Positions 3,230 through 59,930 of a stretch of 64,000 bases of DNA are shown here, one piece after another (position 1 is the first letter of the stretch; each line of letters begins with the position of its first letter). Under the pieces are notes generated by a model. That model searched no databases. It saw only the letters and a list, made by a program, of their open reading frames with translations, and was not told the origin of the DNA. Both the position numbers and the translations under genes were made by a program. The stretch lies in the NCBI GenBank assembly GCA_963762585.1, contig CAVXLF010000023.1, forward strand, positions 85,035-149,034, given 5' to 3'. The stretch is from an uncultured Verrucomicrobiae bacterium. GTDB lineage: Bacteria > Verrucomicrobiota > Verrucomicrobiia > Limisphaerales > UBA11358.

Positions 3230-3802
3230 TTATCTTTTGCGACAGGTTCTGACGCGATACCGCGGCGCGGTTTCCCGGACGTGAAAACCGATCTCGCGGC
3301 GGTTTTCCGGCTTCGGCGGTTCAACCAACTGCCGGATGGCCTCAAATAAACTGGTGATGGCTTCGTCATGGCCGCTGACGCGGGTTTCCAATTCCTTCAA
3401 TTTCTGTGCGAGTTCCTTGTTGGCCGTGATGTGTTCACGCATCCAGACAAACGCACGTACGACCCGGACACTGGCTTCGACGGCCACCGGGCTGTTCAAA
3501 ACACTGGCGAGCATCAACGCGCCATGTTCAGTGAAGGCCGTCGGCAAATGACGATGTCCGCCGTGCAGACTTGAGGTCGCAAATTGCGACCTCAAGTTTG
3601 CAAGCTCTTGATGGGCAAGCTCAAACGCAAAGTCATTGGGGAATCTTTCGGCATTCCGGCGGAATTGTTCTTTTAACCGTTTCGTGGTCACGCCATAAAC
3701 CCGCGCCAGATCAAAATCCAACATAACCCGCTGCCCGCGAATCAGATAAATCATATCTTCGATCCGCAGTACCTGAGCCGCGTTGTTTTTGTAACTGACC
3801 AT
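3230..3802 (-). CDS. ORF6N (KilA-N-like) domain DNA-binding protein inserted between atpA and atpG
   Basis: 190 aa; IRGQRVMLDFDLARVYGVTTKRLKEQFRRNAERFPNDFAF...LRSQFATSS...LPTAFTEHGALMLASVLNSP..A...RAF is the ORF6N family pattern; coiled-coil tail. Visibly more AT-rich than flanks. Confidence 0.75.
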   Translation of the reverse strand: MVSYKNNAAQVLRIEDMIYLIRGQRVMLDFDLARVYGVTTKRLKEQFRRNAERFPNDFAFELAHQELANLRSQFATSSLHGGHRHLPTAFTEHGALMLASVLNSPVAVEASVRVVRAFVWMREHITANKELAQKLKELETRVSGHDEAITSLFEAIRQLVEPPKPENRREIGFHVRETAPRYRVRTCRKR

Positions 3803-5745: not shown

Positions 5746-5761
5746 TCCAATTCTTTTGAGA

Positions 5762-5811
5762 TAGGGACGCCGCGCCGCGGCGTCCGGTCAGCGCCGCGCG
5801 CTGACCCTACC
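5762..5811. repeat. 50-nt double-hairpin GC-rich REP-like element (TAGGG...CCCTACC) filling the atpF-atpH intercistronic gap
   Basis: TAGGGACGCCGCGCCGCGGCGTCCGGTCAGCGCCGCGCGCTGACCCTACC: two 9-bp stems with 3-nt loops; 45/50 identical to 21897-21946. Confidence 0.85.
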
Positions 5812-16199: not shown

Positions 16200-16441
16200 G
16201 GCTGAATCCGAGGAATCCCAACGGGATTCCATCATTCAGCCCAGGGTTGGCGCGCAGCGACTACCCTGGGTTAAACGCACCCAAAACCATCAACCCCAAC
16301 GGGGTTGCATCAATATTCACCCAAACGAATTCAACCCCGTCGGGGTTGTGTTTCATTTTTGATCCGTTACCCGGCGTAGGCCGATTTCTTCGGCCAACGC
16401 CGGGCTGAATGATGCAGCCCCTTTGGGGCTGAACCCTCAGC
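16200..16441. repeat. Cluster of six short GC-stem / 3-4-nt-loop hairpins, two nested in GGCTGA(AT)...(AT)TCAGCC outer stems
   Basis: GGAATCCC-AAC-GGGATTCC (16212-16230); CCCAGGGT...ACCCTGGG (16240-16270); CAACCCC-AAC-GGGGTTG (16291-16307); CAACCCC-GTC-GGGGTTG (16332-16348); GGCCGA-TTTCT-TCGGCC (16379-16395); CAGCCCC-TTT-GGGGCTG (16415-16431). Confidence 0.7.
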
Positions 16442-21663: not shown

Positions 21664-22449
21664 TTACCCGCGACAATTTTTCATCAAGCGCAGCATCTCC
21701 TTGACCGCGGTTTTGAGGCCAGTCATGACCGCCCGGCTGACGATGCTGTGGCCGATGTTCAATTCCACCAGGTGCGGCACGCGATGGAGTAGCGGCAGGT
21801 TTTCGTAATTCAATCCGTGTCCCGCATTCACCCGCAGGCCGAGCGCGTGCGCCTGCTCCGCGGCGGCGATGAGGCGGTCGAGTTCTGATAAATCGGTAGG
21901 GACGGCGCGCTGCGCCGTCCGGTCATCGCCGCGCGATGACCCTACCTTTTTATAAAATTCCTCCGCAAACGCACCGGTGTGCAATTCGACAAACTGGCTT
22001 CCGACCCGCGCGCTGGCCTCAATCTGCTCTTTATCCGGTGCAATGAACAAACTCACCTCGATGCCGGCATCGTTCATTTTCTGGCGTGTTTTGGTCAGAG
22101 CTTTTTCACTCGCGGCCACGTCCAGTCCGCCCTCGGTGGTCACTTCCGACCGGCGTTCGGGCACGAGGCAGATGATATCCGGTTTTAATTTCAGCGCGAT
22201 GGCGATGATGTCCGGCAGGTTGGCCATTTCGAGGTTGAGCCGGGTTTTGACGGTTTTCCGCAATTTCCAGATATCGCGGTCCTGGATGTGCCGGCGGTCT
22301 TCGCGCAGGTGCGCGGTGATGCCGTGCGCGCCGGCGGCCTCGCAAATCCGCGCGGCCTCGACCGGGTCCGGTTCACCAAATCCACGGTTGCGATAACGCG
22401 CTTCGCGGATGGTCGCGACGTGGTCAATATTGACACCCAGTTTCAACAT
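21664..22449 (-). CDS. pdxJ: Pyridoxine 5'-phosphate synthase (carries in-frame repeat insertion)
   Basis: ATG 22449: [60 protein letters not shown]. Confidence 0.92.
21897..21946. repeat. 50-nt double-hairpin REP-like element inside pdxJ coding sequence
   Basis: TAGGGACGGCGCGCTGCGCCGTCCGGTCATCGCCGCGCGATGACCCTACC; translated on the minus strand as [18 protein letters not shown]. Confidence 0.85.
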
Positions 22450-22558
22450 GTAATCAACCTGCCAGCCTTGCGTCTGGCACAACAGAATATTTTCAAGAGG
22501 TGCATTTCGTGCCAAAAGAGTTCCCCTTTGGCAAATTCAATTACATTCGAATTGCCCG

Positions 22559-28980: not shown

Positions 28981-30003
28981 ATGATTGCTGTTGCTGACCA
29001 TTCCGCACCGGTCGTGGACGACCTGCAAGTCCGCCCGGCCATGGCCCCTTCGCGGTTCGAGCCGCTGGCCCGGGAGATTTTCGCGCTCAAAAAGCAGCTC
29101 AACGCCGTCATTCTCGCCCACAATTATCAGGTGCCGGAAATCCAGGACGTGGCGGATTACGTCGGCGACTCGCTCGGCCTGTCGCAACAGGCGGCCAAAA
29201 CGAGCGCGGATGTGATTGTGTTCTGCGGCGTGCATTTCATGGCTGAGACGGCGAAGATTTTGAACCCGAACAAGATTGTCGTGCTACCGGACAAGAACGC
29301 GGGCTGTTCGCTCGAGGAAAGTTGTCCCGCGGACAAACTGGCCGCGCTCCAGGCGACGAATCCCAATTTCTGGACCATCGCCTACATCAATTGCAGCGCG
29401 GCGGTAAAGGCCCTGACCGACGTGATCTGCACCAGCGGCAACGCGGTGAAAATCGTTCAGGCCGCGCCCAGGGACAAGGACATCCTGTTTGTGCCGGACG
29501 AAAACCTGGGTGCGTGGGTGATGGAACAGACCGGCCGCCCGATGACGTTGTGGCAGGGCAATTGTTACGCGCACGTCGAGTTCCGGCGCGAACAGGTGCT
29601 GAAATTGCGCGCGAAATATCCCGACGCCAAGGTTGTGGTGCATCCGGAAAGTTTGCGCGAAGTGCGTGATCTGGCCGACGCGGTTTGCTCGACGGAGCGA
29701 ATGATTTCCTACTGCAAATCGGACCCGGCCAAACGATTCGTCGTGGTGACGGAATCGGGCATAATCCACCGGATGCAGAAGGAATGTCCGGGCAAGGAAT
29801 TTCTATGCGCGCCGGTGTTCGACGTGATGCGGCTGCCGTCGGATCATTGCCGTTGCAGTGAGTGCAAGTACATGAAGCTGAACACGCTGGAAAAGGTGCG
29901 CGACTGCATGAAACAGCTCGCGCCGCGCGTTGAATTACCGGCGGAAATCTTGAAGCGCGCCCGGTTGCCCATTGAGCGGATGCTGGAAATTTCAGCGCGG
30001 TAG
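28981..30003 (+). CDS. nadA: Quinolinate synthase
   Basis: 340 aa; ILAHNYQVPEIQDVAD.VGDS, FCGVHFMAETAKIL, AYINCSA, VVHPES, TESGI; start could be the later Met at 29041. Confidence 0.93.
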   Translation: MIAVADHSAPVVDDLQVRPAMAPSRFEPLAREIFALKKQLNAVILAHNYQVPEIQDVADYVGDSLGLSQQAAKTSADVIVFCGVHFMAETAKILNPNKIVVLPDKNAGCSLEESCPADKLAALQATNPNFWTIAYINCSAAVKALTDVICTSGNAVKIVQAAPRDKDILFVPDENLGAWVMEQTGRPMTLWQGNCYAHVEFRREQVLKLRAKYPDAKVVVHPESLREVRDLADAVCSTERMISYCKSDPAKRFVVVTESGIIHRMQKECPGKEFLCAPVFDVMRLPSDHCRCSECKYMKLNTLEKVRDCMKQLAPRVELPAEILKRARLPIERMLEISAR

Positions 30004-30023
30004 GGCGGCGCTGCCGCGCCGCC
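30000..30023. repeat. GTAGGG-headed hairpin supplying the nadA stop codon
   Basis: GTAGGGCGGCGCTGCCGCGCCGCC: GGCGGCGC-TGCC-GCGCCGCC stem; TAG at 30001-30003 is the nadA stop. Confidence 0.7.
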
Positions 30024-30105
30024 GAGGCCGGGCAGCAGCCTGGCCCTGCCAAAAGTTGGAGACAGGCGCGACGCCGGTTCTACAGCGTAGGTTTGGCCCG
30101 CTGAC

Positions 30106-37129: not shown

Positions 37130-39793
<2,664 letters not shown>

Positions 39794-39947
39794 TTATCGC
39801 CAGACCGGATATGTTGTGGTGCGTAAAAAGCCTCCAAAACCACTTTTCCCGGGCGGAGGAAATGCTTGGAACCAAGGTGGGCGGCCACCTGGTTGGGCAG
39901 CAAAACTTCCGCTTTTCAGTCGCGATGCGGCGTCATATTCTCGGCTG

Positions 39948-42224
39948 GTGAGTCTTCACCGCGACCAACTTTTCGCGCCACTGAAACAATTCTTCGGCTT
40001 CAGTTCCTTCCGTCCGTTGCAGGAGGAAATCATTCGCGACGCGCTCGCGGGCAAGGACGTTTTCGCCGTGCTGCCCACCGGCGGCGGCAAATCGCTCTGC
40101 TTCCAGCTTCCCGCGCTCGTGCAACCCGGACTCACCGTTGTCGTCTCGCCGCTCATCGCGCTGATGAAGGACCAGGTGGACGCGCTACAGGCGGCGGGCG
40201 TGGCGGCGACATTTTTGAATTCATCGCTCGCCGCCGGCGAATCGCGTCCGCGCCTGCGCGGCTTGCACCAGGGCGAGTTCCGGTTGCTCTACGTCGCGCC
40301 GGAGCGGTTAATGTTGTCCGGTTTTCTTGACGACCTGAAGAAATGGAACGTGAACCTGTTCGCGATTGACGAGGCGCATTGCATCAGCGAGTGGGGACAC
40401 GATTTCCGCCCGGAATACCGGCAATTGCAGACGATGCGCGGAATTTTTCCAACCGTGCCGATGATGGCGCTCACGGCCACGGCCACCGAACGCGTGCGCG
40501 GCGACATTGTCCGGCAGCTGCATCTGAAGGATCCCGCGTGCTACGTCGCCAGTTTCAACCGCCCGAACCTGACTTACCGCGTCGCGGCGAAGTCAGGCGC
40601 TTATGACCAGATTCTTTCGTACGTGCAGGCGCGGCCGAACGAAAGCGGCATCATTTACGTGCAGGCGCGCAAAACGGCGGACAGCCTGGCGGCCAAACTT
40701 TCCGCCGACGGCGTGAAGGCGCTGCCGTATCACGCGGGCATGACCCCCGGTGACCGGACGAAAAGCCAGGAGGCATTTCTTCGCGACGAGGCGCGCGTGA
40801 TTTGCGCGACCATCGCCTTTGGCATGGGCATCAACAAGCCGAACGTGCGTTTCGTGATTCACTACGACCTGCCGAAGAACATCGAAGGCTATTATCAGGA
40901 AACGGGCCGCGCCGGCCGTGACGGTCTGCCCGGCGAATGTCTGCTGTTGTTCAGCCCCGGCGACCGGGTCAAGCAGATGCGGTTCATTGACGAAAAACCA
41001 AGTCCGCAGGAGCGCGAAATCGCCCGCGCCCAACTGGAACAGATGATTCACTACGCCGAGATCGCCACCTGCCGCCGTGAATTTCTGCTGGGATATTTCG
41101 GGGAGAAATTTAATCCAAATGAGGTTGTCGGACAAGGTGGGGCGCGTCACTCCGTGCGCGCCGACTTTGCAACATTGGACAACGGCGCGCACGGAGTGAC
41201 GCGCCCGACCGAACCCGTGAATTGTGCCGGCTGCGACAACTGCCTCTCGCCGCGCGCGACCTGGGACGGCACGCTGGCGGCGCAAAAATTTCTTTCGTGT
41301 GTCTATCGCATCCGTGAGAAAAGCGGTTTCGGCGTCGGCATTCAGCACGTGGTCGAGGTGCTCTGCGGTGCGGAAACGGAAAAAGTCCGCAAGTTCGGCC
41401 ACCACACACTTTCGACCTACAACATTGGCGACGGACATGCGCGCGCCGAGTGGAGCGCGATTGGACGTGAACTGGTGCGGCTCGGTTTGCTGTTTCAAAA
41501 CGCGGAGAAGTTCAACATCGTCGAGCTGACCGACGCCGGTCACACGGCGCTGAAATCGCGGCAGAAAATCACGTTGACCAAACCGGTCGCTCCGACCGAA
41601 CCGGCGAAGCATCGCGCCGGCGAAATTGCCTGTGACGAGGCGTTGTTCGAGAAATTGCGCGCGCTGCGGAAACAGCTTGCCGACGCGCGCGCCGTGCCGC
41701 CTTACATTATTTTCTCCGACGTGTCGCTGCGGCAGATGGCGCGGTTTTATCCCGCGAACGAAAAGGATTTTTCGCGCATCAGCGGCGTGGGTGAAAGGAA
41801 GCTGCGCGAATTCGGCGAAGCTTTCCTGGGTGAAATTGCGGCGCATGTGCAGACGAACCCGCGCCAGGTTTTTGCGGATGATTTCCCGGCGGATGGAATG
41901 CCGTCCGCGCCGGTGCCGCGCCGGTCACGGCTGACCGACAGCGTGCGCGAGACGCTGCATTTTTTCCAGCAAGGCCGGGCGGTTTCCGAAATTGCAAAAA
42001 TTCGCGGCTTCAAAGACAGCACGATTTACAGTCATCTTGAAGAAGCCATGCTCGCGGGCGAATCGGTTGATGTGCATTCATTGGTTTCAGCCGAAGCCAG
42101 GCGCGACATCGCCGCAGCCTTCGTCCGGCACGGTTTCGGCAACCTCACCGGCGTGGTCGAATCGCTCGGCGGGAAATACGGTTACGGCGAATGCCGCGTC
42201 GTCCGCGCCGCGTTGCAAAGGTAG
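39948..42224 (+). CDS. recQ: ATP-dependent DNA helicase RecQ (helicase-RQC-HRDC plus C-terminal HTH-like tail)
   Basis: [91 protein letters not shown], CxxCDNC, HRDC ([15 protein letters not shown]). No in-frame ATG; GTG 39948 proposed. The track ORF start 39540 overlaps gyrB. Confidence 0.92.
41136..41210. mobile_element. REPIN (inverted REP doublet, 28+19+28 nt) inserted in frame in recQ
   Basis: GGTGGGGCGCGTCACTCCGTGCGCGCCG (41136-41163) and CGGCGCGCACGGAGTGACGCGCCCGACC (41183-41210); each is 27/28 identical to the arms flanking the RAYT gene at 59.3-59.9 kb. Confidence 0.85.
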
Positions 42225-42268
42225 GGACGCCGCGCTGCGGCGTCACCGCCCGCGAAATAGCGGGCGGA
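42221..42268. repeat. GTAGGG-headed hairpin pair supplying the recQ stop codon
   Basis: GTAGGGACGCCGC-GCT-GCGGCGTC then CCGCCCGC-GAAATA-GCGGGCGG; TAG at 42222-42224 is the recQ stop. Confidence 0.75.
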
Positions 42269-45234: not shown

Positions 45235-45342
45235 ACCGCAGAGACGCAGAGGTGGGGTTGGCGCGCTGCGCCGACCGCGCCGCGTGCAGCGGCGCAAGCG
45301 AGATGGATTGTGACTGAGTGACGCGAGAGGAGCGTCCGGTTC

Positions 45343-45387
45343 CGGCCCTGAACGGGCCGGAGGTCATCGCAGCGCGATGACCCTACC
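45343..45387. repeat. Hairpin pair ending in CCCTACC tail
   Basis: CCGGCCC-TGAAC-GGGCCGG then GGTCATCGC-AGC-GCGATGACCCTACC; the second stem is identical to hairpin 2 of the pdxJ element. Confidence 0.7.
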
Positions 45388-48841: not shown

Positions 48842-48935
48842 AACATCCAACATCCAACATCCAACATCCAATTCCCAATGCCGGCGGTGCAGGCATCATT
48901 GGATGTTCGGCGTTCGATGTTGGATGTTGGATGTT
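48842..48935. repeat. Inverted pair of heptamer arrays (AACATCC xN ... GGATGTT xN)
   Basis: AACATCC x4 perfect plus 2 degenerate (48842-48883); GGATGTT-type x5, 3 perfect (48901-48935); the arms are reverse complements. Confidence 0.85.
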
Positions 48936-58686: not shown

Positions 58687-58721
58687 ACCGGCTTGGGAAG
58701 CGGTTGCAGCCTAATCTGATA

Positions 58722-59147
58722 TTAGACATCAGGAGTCTTCTGGAGCATCCTCTGCGCTTGCTCCGACTGCTCCTGGTTGGAGGCGTCGGTGCGAGGAAAG
58801 CGGCGCCGATAATCGCGAATATCGCGGAAAGTGCGTGTCACCACCTCCAAAAACTTCCCCTCCAACTTGGGAATAACTCTGCCCAGGAGCATCACATTCC
58901 GGTCGAGGCTCAACTCCAATGACTCTCGCTTCAATCGTCGTCCGCCACCATTCAAAACCATCAACTCAAACAATGTCTGCTGCGCGTTGGTCAAAGCCGT
59001 CACCATCTCTACCAGAGGATAATCTTCGGGCGGTGGGCCGCCGAACTCGTCCATCAAATCCAACGTAACTTTTGTCGGCGGCTTGGGTGGCCCATCTATC
59101 CGCTTTAGCTTGGGCTTCGACTGCTTCCTTGACGCGTCGTCACTCAT
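58722..59147 (-). CDS. Hypothetical protein in AT-richer islet next to RAYT
   Basis: 141 aa, Lys/Pro-rich N-terminus, no recognised motif. Confidence 0.35.
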   Translation of the reverse strand: MSDDASRKQSKPKLKRIDGPPKPPTKVTLDLMDEFGGPPPEDYPLVEMVTALTNAQQTLFELMVLNGGGRRLKRESLELSLDRNVMLLGRVIPKLEGKFLEVVTRTFRDIRDYRRRFPRTDASNQEQSEQAQRMLQKTPDV

Positions 59148-59293
59148 GTGTGTGATGAGGTCTAACAGACAAACGACAGCTTCTCTTGCAGCCTATCCAG
59201 TTTCATGTTCCAACAGTATTTTCGGTGTAACTTTCTGTCCAGCATTTTAGCAGGCGCGGCGATTGGGGGCGATTTTACGCACCCTACGCGGAT

Positions 59294-59930
59294 GGTAGGG
59301 CGCGTCACTCCGTGCGCGCCGTCGTTGTTCGTGCGGCGGGCAGGGGACTGCCCGCCCTACCCAAACGTGGGTGACGGTCGGTTATTCGGGCGATAGACCC
59401 ATGCCCAGTCTTCCGCGCGCTCGCACAATCCTTTACGGACAGGATTCATCAGAATGTAGCTGGTCTTCTCCGCCAATTCATTATGATCGCGCAGACGGTG
59501 ATCGAAGAAATCGCGTTGCCAATGCACATCGTGTTTTAAAGCCACATATTTCTTCCAATTTTTCATCACCGTTTCAATTCCTGGTTCGCGCGGGAACGCG
59601 AGGAGGGCATGCAAATGATCCGGCATGAGCAGGCACAGCCGACAATGCCAGATAAGTTTCTCATGGTTGTATTTCATCGCCGCCAACACAGCATCGCCGG
59701 TTCCGGCCTGGCATAAGTGATTTCTTCCCGGCGGCATGCATTTGATCGTGATGAAGAACCAACTTCCCTCAGCCACCCACTGCGGAATTGTGTGCGGCAG
59801 CTTTTTGCGGACAGGCAAGTCCATTAAGTGAAACGCAACCGAGGCCAACCGTGAAAGTTGGGCTCCGTAAGTCGTCTATGCGCCTTTAGTATTTTCGAAC
59901 AACGGCGCGCACGGAGTGACGCGCCCTACC
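59294..59930 (-). mobile_element. RAYT unit: tyrosine transposase gene bracketed by perfect 28-bp inverted REPs
   Basis: GGTAGGGCGCGTCACTCCGTGCGCGCCG at 59294-59321 and its exact reverse complement at 59903-59930. An additional GTAGGG-headed hairpin (59335-59362, minus orientation) supplies the RAYT stop. Confidence 0.85.
59357..59824 (-). CDS. REP-associated tyrosine transposase (IS200/IS605 Y1 superfamily)
   Basis: GSWFFITIKC, LLMPDHLHALL (HUH), WQRDFFDHRLRD, YILMNPVRKGL (catalytic Tyr), collinear with E. coli-type RAYT. ATG 59824 preferred over TTG 59848. Confidence 0.85.
   Translation of the reverse strand: MDLPVRKKLPHTIPQWVAEGSWFFITIKCMPPGRNHLCQAGTGDAVLAAMKYNHEKLIWHCRLCLLMPDHLHALLAFPREPGIETVMKNWKKYVALKHDVHWQRDFFDHRLRDHNELAEKTSYILMNPVRKGLCERAEDWAWVYRPNNRPSPTFG

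Follow-up and report, generated by a model that had tools for sequence, protein, structure and literature searches.

Research on the REP-associated tyrosine transposases (RAYTs), on the repetitive extragenic palindromes (REPs) themselves and on the inverted REP doublets forming hairpins (REPINs) is dominated by Enterobacteria and Pseudomonas. A survey of GTAG-headed REPs by Di Nocera, De Gregorio and Rocco in 2013 (BMC Genomics, PMC3733652) found such elements also in the Planctomycetes-Verrucomicrobia-Chlamydiae (PVC) superphylum, where Opitutus terrae (Verrucomicrobia) was "highly enriched," with four co-existing REP families, one of them mostly GTGG-headed. The same survey showed that RAYT genes flanked by REPs (REPtrons) exist, some of the REPs overlapping the 3' end of the gene; that the TAG of the GTAG head often serves as a stop codon; that O. 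terrae has the largest number of intragenic, in-frame GTAG REPs, with replication and repair genes prominent; and that different REPs occur at about the same recB site in two Xanthomonas species. The mechanism and the REPtron arrangement are treated there and in PMC3479197, PMC3116915 and PMC5581495. Here we describe a locus at positions 59294-59930 of a 64,000-nt stretch of DNA (the window) from an uncultured Verrucomicrobiae bacterium. With a probability of roughly 85%, we read it as a REPtron: one HUH/Y1 RAYT gene of the TnpAREP type, bracketed by cognate REPs and inherited with the host lineage.

Read in the sense of the gene, the locus has the order REP-A, RAYT, REP-B, inverted REP-A:

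59903-59930, minus strand: REP-A upstream of RAYT, reading GGTAGGGCGCGTCACTCCGTGCGCGCCG in the gene sense (exact match and DNA hairpin fold)
59357-59824, minus strand: RAYT coding sequence, 155 aa, in a frame that stays open up to a TTG at 59848
59334-59361, minus strand: REP-B, GGTAGGGCGGGCAGTCCCCTGCCCGCCG, a hairpin of another type (folding at -12.9 kcal/mol, z = -4.4)
59294-59321, plus strand: REP-A downstream of RAYT, inverted relative to the upstream copy

An initial annotation of this DNA had proposed a RAYT gene between perfect 28-bp inverted GTAG-headed repeats, and our analysis bears this out: the 28-mer on the plus strand at 59294-59321 returns as its exact reverse complement at 59903-59930, and all of the quoted protein motifs (GSWFFITIKC, LLMPDHLHALL, WQRDFFDHRLRD and YILMNPVRKGL) are found in the minus-strand open reading frame (ORF) 59357-59848. 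Dinucleotide-preserving shuffles gave no match to the 28-mer (0/100), and the inverted repeat around RAYT extends to 33 nt with one mismatch (97% complementarity). Folded as single-stranded DNA (-10.3 kcal/mol, z = -3.0), a REP-A arm leaves the five nucleotides of its GGTAG head unpaired. GGCGCG(T)CAC then pairs across the 3-nt loop TCC with GTGCGCGCC, in a stem of 9 bp from which a single T bulges out. This agrees with the GTAG head and one-bulge palindrome described earlier. REP-B, missed by that annotation, is likewise GTAG-headed and has a different stem; the two types have the GGTAGGG head in common, and their stem differences are paired and compensatory. REP-B and the downstream REP-A, 12 nt apart, make up a head-outward A/B doublet, and the TAG of the REP-B head (59357-59359) is the RAYT stop codon. 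The upstream REP-A sits in the 119-nt gap between the stop codon of a sigma-54 response regulator gene (59944) and the RAYT start (59824), a position and orientation (A+) repeated in many orthologous loci. A promoter scan upstream of RAYT gave nothing above chance, and Rfam at gathering thresholds recognized no family anywhere in the window.

The protein itself belongs clearly to the RAYTs. It matches the NCBIfam equivalog NF047646.1 (REP_Tyr_transpos) with 86.2 bits against a cut-off of 80 (E = 2e-24) over profile positions 5-145 of 146. Homologues number more than 2,200, the best being 155 aa long with 75-87% identity, and since they have this length and begin MDLP, the start codon is probably the ATG at 59824. 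An exact-match look-up of the protein in public assemblies had no hit. The sole sequence match in the Protein Data Bank is 4ER8, the Escherichia coli TnpAREP bound to a REP hairpin (E = 6e-6): PDHLHALL aligns with PEHMHCIW, HLH lying on HMH, which places the HUH motif at H70-L-H72. Y123 is in register with Y115 of 4ER8 (residue number by count of chain residues in the HMMER alignment), which we take to be the catalytic tyrosine of E. coli TnpAREP. An AlphaFold2 model built from 30 homologues (predicted local distance difference score 84.5, predicted template-modelling score 0.81) has 4ER8_A as its top Foldseek match (E = 1.3e-7, template-modelling (TM) score 0.68/0.65), and the transposases of IS608, IS200 and ISDra2 follow with TM ~0.5. 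H70, Y123, W102, R104 and D105 are invariant in 30 sequences, and across the RAYT orthologues (n=83) H70, Y123 and the WQRDF block show little or no variation. The gene has an intact catalytic core and is conserved under purifying selection. By motif comparison, not phylogeny, the DHLH / WQ / YILMNP signature and the length of 155 aa put the protein nearest to subclass 2.5, the REPIN-associated type of Pseudomonas and Xanthomonas (Bertels group 3; Quentin et al. 2018, PMC6006769).

The association between this gene and its REPs holds throughout the relatives, for which L-numbers denote nucleotide loci and P-numbers homologous proteins. A scan of metagenome contigs yielded 80 loci with RAYT orthologues of 73-88% identity, and REP-A and/or REP-B lie within 300 nt of RAYT in all 80, as they do in L011 and L085 (82/82). 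The commonest architecture is (A+ B-) RAYT (B+ A-), and in ~60 of 83 orthologues the RAYT stop is the TAG of a GGTAGGG head. The closest relative, L127 (RAYT 88% identical), has the architecture of the window and the same neighbour genes, with a sigma-54 response regulator 94% and PepF 89% identical. A synteny test with the neighbours (sigma-54 regulator, PepF and orf141, the 141-aa ORF between pepF and the REPtron) showed that, among the relatives, only L127 keeps them; therefore, vertical inheritance is shown at short range only.

The REPs reach far beyond the gene. Using an exact 20-mer from the REP-A stem-loop as search core and blocks of 8 kb, we found the core in at least 119 blocks from at least 84 species-representative genomes, nearly all labelled Verrucomicrobiota (Limisphaerales, Pedosphaera, subdivision 3 and others among the matches listed, to which the copy, doublet and block counts that follow also refer). 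Of 166 copies, 103 agree with the full 28-mer at every position. Although the GGTA head was no part of the search core, its conservation reaches 89-98% in the 276 distinct A and 118 distinct B copies from all loci gathered. Head-outward doublets hold 116 of 170 A copies (30 A/A and 53 A/B doublets), and 54 are singlets. A/A spacers measure 17-23 nt with a mode of 19, apart from one doublet with 34 nt (L001-L119 and L127-L206); their length is kept while their sequence is almost unconstrained. The doublets, typically 56-80 bp, have no coding capacity, and RAYT is present in only 2 of the 119 REP-bearing blocks. This points to many REPs per transposase gene, in the pattern of non-coding hairpin doublets of REPINs and bacterial interspersed mosaic elements (BIMEs). 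Of additional note, REP-A, often as doublets, also occurs in records titled Bifidobacterium, Bifidobacteriaceae, Klebsiella, Hyphomicrobiales, Candidatus Angelobacter or Sulfotelmatobacter (L013, L014, L029, L030, L033, L053, L063, L075-L077, L084, L087, L088, L099, L101, L118, L005, L006, L057 and L114); the organism labels of these species-representative metagenome-assembled genomes look unreliable.

Two REP doublets of the window lie in frame inside conserved genes:

41136-41210, no strand assigned: REP-A/REP-A inverted doublet in recQ, 75 bp, with arms at 41136-41163 (plus) and 41183-41210 (minus) and a 19-nt spacer
21895-21946, no strand assigned: head-outward type-E doublet in pdxJ (21664-22515, minus), with GGTAGGG heads, a 10-bp stem, a 3-nt loop and no spacer

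The near-identical copies in recQ reported by the initial annotation are real. Each arm matches the 28-mer at 27 of 28 positions, the mismatch falling in the GTAG head (GGTGGGG and GGTCGGG), and the doublet folds as DNA at -43 kcal/mol (z = -10.2). It adds 25 residues between the first and second zinc-binding cysteines, in the zinc-finger loop; the distance from FGE391 to C397 is 5 residues in E. coli RecQ (1OYW) and 39 in the RecQ of the window. Because, with a 19-nt spacer, only one of three frames avoids the TAG/TGA of the arms, the same RecQ peptide recurs. The same insert class with diverged spacers occurs in RecQ of 82-100% backbone identity, with GGTAGGG heads intact in L126 and the left arm decayed further in the nearest relative, P0121. 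Since the heads are mutated and relatives share the insertion, the recQ REPIN is inherited and immobilized and not a recent event. The conclusion drawn earlier from these copies, that the system has been active in this genome, is therefore not supported, and the accompanying view that a RAYT/REP system with coding-sequence insertions in a PVC-type genome had not been characterized is overtaken by the catalogue of Di Nocera et al. (2013; PMC3733652). A search for recQ in the 119 REP-bearing blocks, made to see whether the insertion is shared, found none; the sharing is seen in the RecQ protein homologues. As to the gene itself, the recQ ORF (39540-42224, 894 aa) is open for ~140 codons upstream of the start used in orthologues of 744-760 aa (39540-39986); this extension enters the gyrB-recQ intergenic region, and 894 aa overstates the gene.

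Both sites look re-used. Among 120 RecQ orthologues (77-99% identity overall, with DNA for 11), the segment from YFGE to the next cysteine has 6 residues in P0215 and P0224, 11 in P0238 and 19-85 in nearly all others. An insert is present in 118 of the 120 and missing from P0215 and P0224 (L123 being empty). Those RecQ and PdxJ homologues that come with a source name are labelled Limisphaerales or Verrucomicrobiae, in agreement with the placement of the window. The order gyrA-gyrB | recQ | gcvP is kept wherever the contig is long enough, so these are true recQ orthologues. No other major indel region exists in the interior of the gene; a small one of 9 columns lies near residue 641. The inserts fall into at least six unrelated sequence classes, and in the 11 orthologues with DNA every one is a long palindrome (-20 to -52 kcal/mol vs -10 for the empty site). 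Several classes are GTAG-headed, and several arms recur at unrelated loci. One element family, with arms GTAGCAGCCGACGTGAGGAGGCTC, is found both at the RecQ site (L121, L209) and at the PdxJ site (L210). At L120:11162-11277 (RecQ P0131), a palindrome GTTGGAGTTCAAGCTT... is nested, in frame, in the loop of another with arms TTCGGAGCGCCGGTCTCCGACCCGGC, and the outer element is found alone in relatives, which suggests that one element inserted into the hairpin loop of a resident one. In four recQ genes that are 89-93% identical at the nucleotide level, each insert is a different element, and the flanks stay ~95% identical up to the insert; different classes occur even in backbones 99% identical. 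A neighbour-joining tree of RecQ backbones (112 taxa) requires at least 54 class changes; shuffled labels gave 58-72. The pdxJ gene (Pfam PdxJ, 315 bits) behaves similarly: its doublet adds ~16 residues in an alignment with E. coli PdxJ (1M5W), and orthologues carry at least six insert classes at this site. The intergenic region 3' of recQ also holds different palindromes in different relatives. A literature search on palindromic insertions in RecQ found nothing relevant.

How these sites came to hold different elements allows three readings: (a) steady insertion, with selection keeping a few tolerant codons and frequent deletion of the palindromes; (b) reshuffling of long-standing insert alleles through homologous recombination between related strains; and (c) true targeting of sites or resident hairpins, possibly with exchange, through RAYT, of elements that have a head in common. 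Reading (b) is somewhat disfavoured, because the boundaries are sharp and flank divergence is not elevated; the data are compatible with (a) and (c) alike. We raise only tentatively, and with more doubt than belief, the idea that the RecQ and PdxJ loops are dedicated in-frame landing pads in which at least six palindrome families repeatedly excise and integrate at the same few nucleotides on the timescale of strain divergence, several of these families being GTAG-headed and presumably RAYT substrates. If true, either the site or a hairpin would have to direct the targeting, or RAYT would exchange elements sharing a head.

Intragenic REPs are not confined to these two genes. Within the 119 blocks listed, 30 of 143 REP-A/B units lie in a stop-free stretch with at least 80 codons on either side, and most of 20 intragenic cases tested have Pfam domains on the sides of the REP or across it. 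Among them are a radical-SAM enzyme, GlnRS/GluRS, a pyridine-nucleotide disulphide oxidoreductase, PrpD, HrpA and DnaE2, as well as RibD, GyrB, MetH, two DNA methylases and a Ser/Thr kinase. The extragenic location that the name REP implies does not hold for the recQ and pdxJ doublets; given the documented cases in the phylum (PMC3733652), intragenic REPs depart from the name, not from the known family.

We propose a mechanism for the system. RAYT is bracketed in every case by REP-A/B, and the REPs are dispersed headed hairpins, mostly in inverted doublets and variable at orthologous sites; from the analogy with E. coli TnpAREP and the TnpA of IS200/IS605, we infer that RAYT is catalytically active and mobilizes them. 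The enzyme would recognize the folded REP hairpin together with the 5' GGTAG(GG) head on single-stranded DNA, for example on the lagging-strand template, and would cleave next to the head by means of Tyr123, with the metal held by His70/His72. REPs or head-outward doublets (REPINs/BIMEs) could then be excised and re-inserted around the chromosome during replication. The RAYT gene itself would not multiply but would be passed on with the Limisphaerales-type Verrucomicrobiota host lineage. One enzyme lineage may be linked with at least two stem types sharing the GGTAGGG head (A and B). Compensatory changes separate the stems of A, B and E, and type E and the other GGTAGGG-headed hairpins in the window are probably RAYT substrates too. 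Doublets landing in frame in tolerant loops would persist as extra peptide segments, as in recQ and pdxJ, and REP heads abutting genes would often supply a TAG stop.

Several observations weigh against the REPtron interpretation. The counts for the source genome cover the 64 kb of the window, which contains four A copies, two of which flank RAYT, one B and one RAYT, with no second copy of the gene and its ends; these A/B units make up two doublets (A/A in recQ, A/B beside RAYT) and one singlet, to which ~9 other GGTAGGG-headed hairpins are added. The recQ copy is old, both of its GTAG heads being lost. A search beside the REP heads for a target-site motif or duplication yielded nothing beyond a weak bias towards A/T at -6/-5. 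The expectation that the protein would match transposase profiles held for the RAYT-specific NF047646 but not for Pfam PF01797 (Y1_Tnp), which gave 15.5 bits, below the gathering score of 23 (E = 0.02, residues 71-104 only). G+C of the RAYT region is 0.51-0.54 vs 0.60-0.63 for the neighbours. RAYT orthologues other than L127 are found in different gene neighbourhoods; therefore, either the REPtron or the genomes have been rearranged, and horizontal transfer of the REPtron is possible. Finally, in a tree of 83 RAYT genes the A- and B-flanked genes do not fall into the separate clades expected from enzyme and stem evolving together; one enzyme lineage is therefore associated with both stem types. 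Some of these points would suit an autonomous insertion sequence (IS) of the IS200/IS605 type, in which the transposase and two terminal hairpins move as a unit and the other 28-mers are solo ends or decayed copies. Such an element would account for the perfect inverted repeat around the gene, the different contexts of the orthologues in most related genomes, the lower G+C, and a fold common to the TnpA of IS608 and IS200. We nevertheless regard it as very unlikely. The IS200 model Y1_Tnp stays under its threshold, which tells against an IS200-type assignment and not against a RAYT, while the RAYT equivalog exceeds its own, the fold is nearer to 4ER8 than to any IS TnpA, and the gene is missing from all but two of the REP-bearing blocks listed, where REPs are mainly short head-outward doublets unable to encode it. 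In L127, a RAYT of 88% identity between neighbours of 89-94% fits vertical descent and not recent transposition. The ends of IS200/IS605 elements are two different subterminal hairpins and not inverted copies of one repeat, which also counts against this explanation.

The hairpins could instead be selected structural or regulatory elements of the host (terminator-like hairpins, mRNA stabilizers or protein-binding sites), with RAYT as a domesticated nuclease that has ceased to move them or a mere neighbour. The identical 28-mer kept across at least 84 species, the many REPs placed directly at gene 3' ends, where they donate the stop codon, and the one REP arm that scored terminator-like all suit this explanation, and a role of many REPs at the level of RNA is argued for by Di Nocera et al. 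(PMC3733652). It does not explain why every RAYT orthologue should be strictly bracketed by the repeats or why a GGTAG head outside the stem should be conserved, nor does it explain the polymorphism in presence and element type at orthologous sites of near-identical genes or the in-frame copies in ~15 unrelated genes. We consider it improbable as a full account, although some chance must be left to it; the host-function and REPtron views are compatible and not mutually exclusive. A further explanation concerns only the extra segment of RecQ and PdxJ, which might be a fast-evolving low-complexity linker whose likeness to a REP is coincidental. The loop does tolerate 6 to 85 residues (from FGE to the next cysteine) and many sequences. 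However, for the REP-A insert class in RecQ this explanation is refuted by the 27/28 match of both arms, and the intact GTAG heads in L126, the palindromic nature and fold energies of all other insert classes, and the recurrence of arms at unrelated loci, including the GTAGCAGCCGACGTGAGGAGGCTC family shared by RecQ and PdxJ, reduce its chance to almost nothing.

Outside the REPtron and the two intragenic doublets, the window holds further headed hairpins. Since the background of our headed-hairpin scan was high (84 in the window vs 43-67 in shuffles), we kept those whose head is of the GGTAGGG type and whose stem has 8-10 bp or more, a set in which the stem sequences covary:

5760-5811, no strand assigned: type-E doublet, GATAGGGACGCCGCGCCGCGGCGTCC / reverse complement of GGTAGGGTCAGCGCGCGGCGCTGACC, upstream of atpA and probably intergenic
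29999-30052, no strand assigned: head-outward doublet of two other hairpins, GTAG/GCAG-headed, between convergent genes; its TAG at 30001-30003 is the nadA stop
42220-42246, plus strand: type-E REP GGTAGGGACGCCGCGCTGCGGCGTCACC; its TAG (42222-42224) is the recQ stop codon
~45252-45277 (plus) and ~45360-45387 (minus): two type-E hairpins downstream of gcvP, from the hairpin scan

In total, the window has two in-frame intragenic doublets (recQ and pdxJ), and three of its genes, recQ, nadA and RAYT, have a REP head at their end. Other repeats were seen as well. Between two minus-strand ORFs, at 48842-48935, is a palindrome of tandem heptamers in which (AACATCC)n is opposed by (GGATGTT)n (39-nt arms, 82% complementarity). 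The intergenic 35-nt inverted repeats at 16217-16251 and 16393-16427 (83% complementary, 141 nt apart) are similar to miniature inverted-repeat transposable elements and unrelated to the GTAG REPs. Two palindromes, at 3564-3602 just downstream of atpA (19-nt arms, 95% complementarity, 1-nt loop) and at 793-863 (25-nt arms, 80% complementarity, 21-nt loop), may be terminators. Between pepF and the REPtron, a segment of ~600 nt (58687-59293) has a lower G+C (0.49-0.54) and contains orf141 (58722-59147, minus strand), which has no Pfam family and no homologue found in related loci. It is absent from the syntenic L127, where the gap between RAYT and pepF is only ~310 nt. The segment is lineage-specific, and orf141 is not counted as part of the REPtron.

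The locus documents a well-conserved system in abundant uncultured Verrucomicrobiota of soil and freshwater. A single 28-nt master in at least 84 species contrasts with models in which REPIN populations co-diverge with the host lineage. The RecQ and PdxJ sites supply natural filled, empty and differently filled alleles with sharp boundaries in near-identical genes, from which junction rules for the insertion and excision of REPINs can be derived. The peptides of 16-35 residues that REPs encode inside RecQ, PdxJ, GyrB, DnaE2, MetH, GlnRS and others, together with REP-supplied stops, can mislead gene calling, alignment and structure prediction.

Among the described systems, E. coli TnpAREP (4ER8; Messing et al. 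2012, PMC3479197; Ton-Hoang et al. 2012, cited in PMC3733652) resembles the window system in its HUH and Tyr core and its fold (TM 0.68), in a gene flanked by cognate REPs, and in a 5' GTAG followed by a bulged hairpin; in the E. coli BIMEs, two REP types are likewise inverted, Y and Z REPs there, A and B here. In contrast, the two proteins are only 18% identical in the structural alignment and have 165 aa there and 155 here, and the DHLH / WQ / YILMNP signature is nearer to the Pseudomonas/Xanthomonas subclass. The head extended to GGTAGGG, the Verrucomicrobium host and the REP-supplied stop also set our system apart. The REPIN-RAYT systems of Pseudomonas (Bertels and Rainey 2011, PMC3116915; Bertels et al. 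2017, PMC5581495; subclass 2.5 in PMC6006769) share with it a protein of ~151-155 aa with DH[LF]H and WQ, inverted doublets with a short spacer, and what look here like many REPINs per gene and long persistence in the host lineage. The Tyr motif is YILMNP here and YI[VI]ANP there. The spacer of Pseudomonas REPINs is part of the conserved unit, whereas here its length is kept (17-23 nt, one of 34) and its sequence is not; the Pseudomonas elements are lineage-specific, unlike the 28-nt master shared by so many species here; and in our system A/B doublets outnumber A/A.

With the TnpA of IS200/IS605 (IS608, ISDra2) our RAYT shares the HUH-Y1 fold and, by analogy, would share the recognition of single-stranded hairpins and the presumed peel-and-paste chemistry; it differs in that the Pfam model stays under threshold, the gene is apparently not multiplied, and the ends are copies of one dispersed repeat instead of distinct left and right ends. 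No dedicated transposase is known for the Rickettsia palindromic elements (Ogata et al. 2000, cited in PMC3733652). Like the elements described here, they are in-frame palindromes in conserved genes, tolerated as surface loops; they are longer (~100-150 bp) and their hosts have reduced intracellular genomes. Their insertions are not known to be replaced by other families and are mostly stable across species. Closest of all in host are the GTAG-17 to GTAG-20 families of O. terrae (PMC3733652), which have in common with our REPs a verrucomicrobial host, several co-existing families, GTGG-type heads, dimers with very short spacers, the TAG used as a stop, and in-frame copies of ~20-30 aa in replication and repair genes, represented here by RecQ, GyrB, DnaE2, HrpA and DNA methylases. 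They differ in belonging to Opitutales and not to a Limisphaerales-type host and in their stem sequences. RecQ and PdxJ are not in the list of intragenic targets of that survey, and the turnover of multiple families at a single orthologous in-frame position of near-identical genes is only touched on there, for the Xanthomonas recB. All qualitative elements of the finding first annotated at this locus are thus precedented in the same phylum (PMC3733652); new here are the particular REP family, the order-level host and the scale of conservation.

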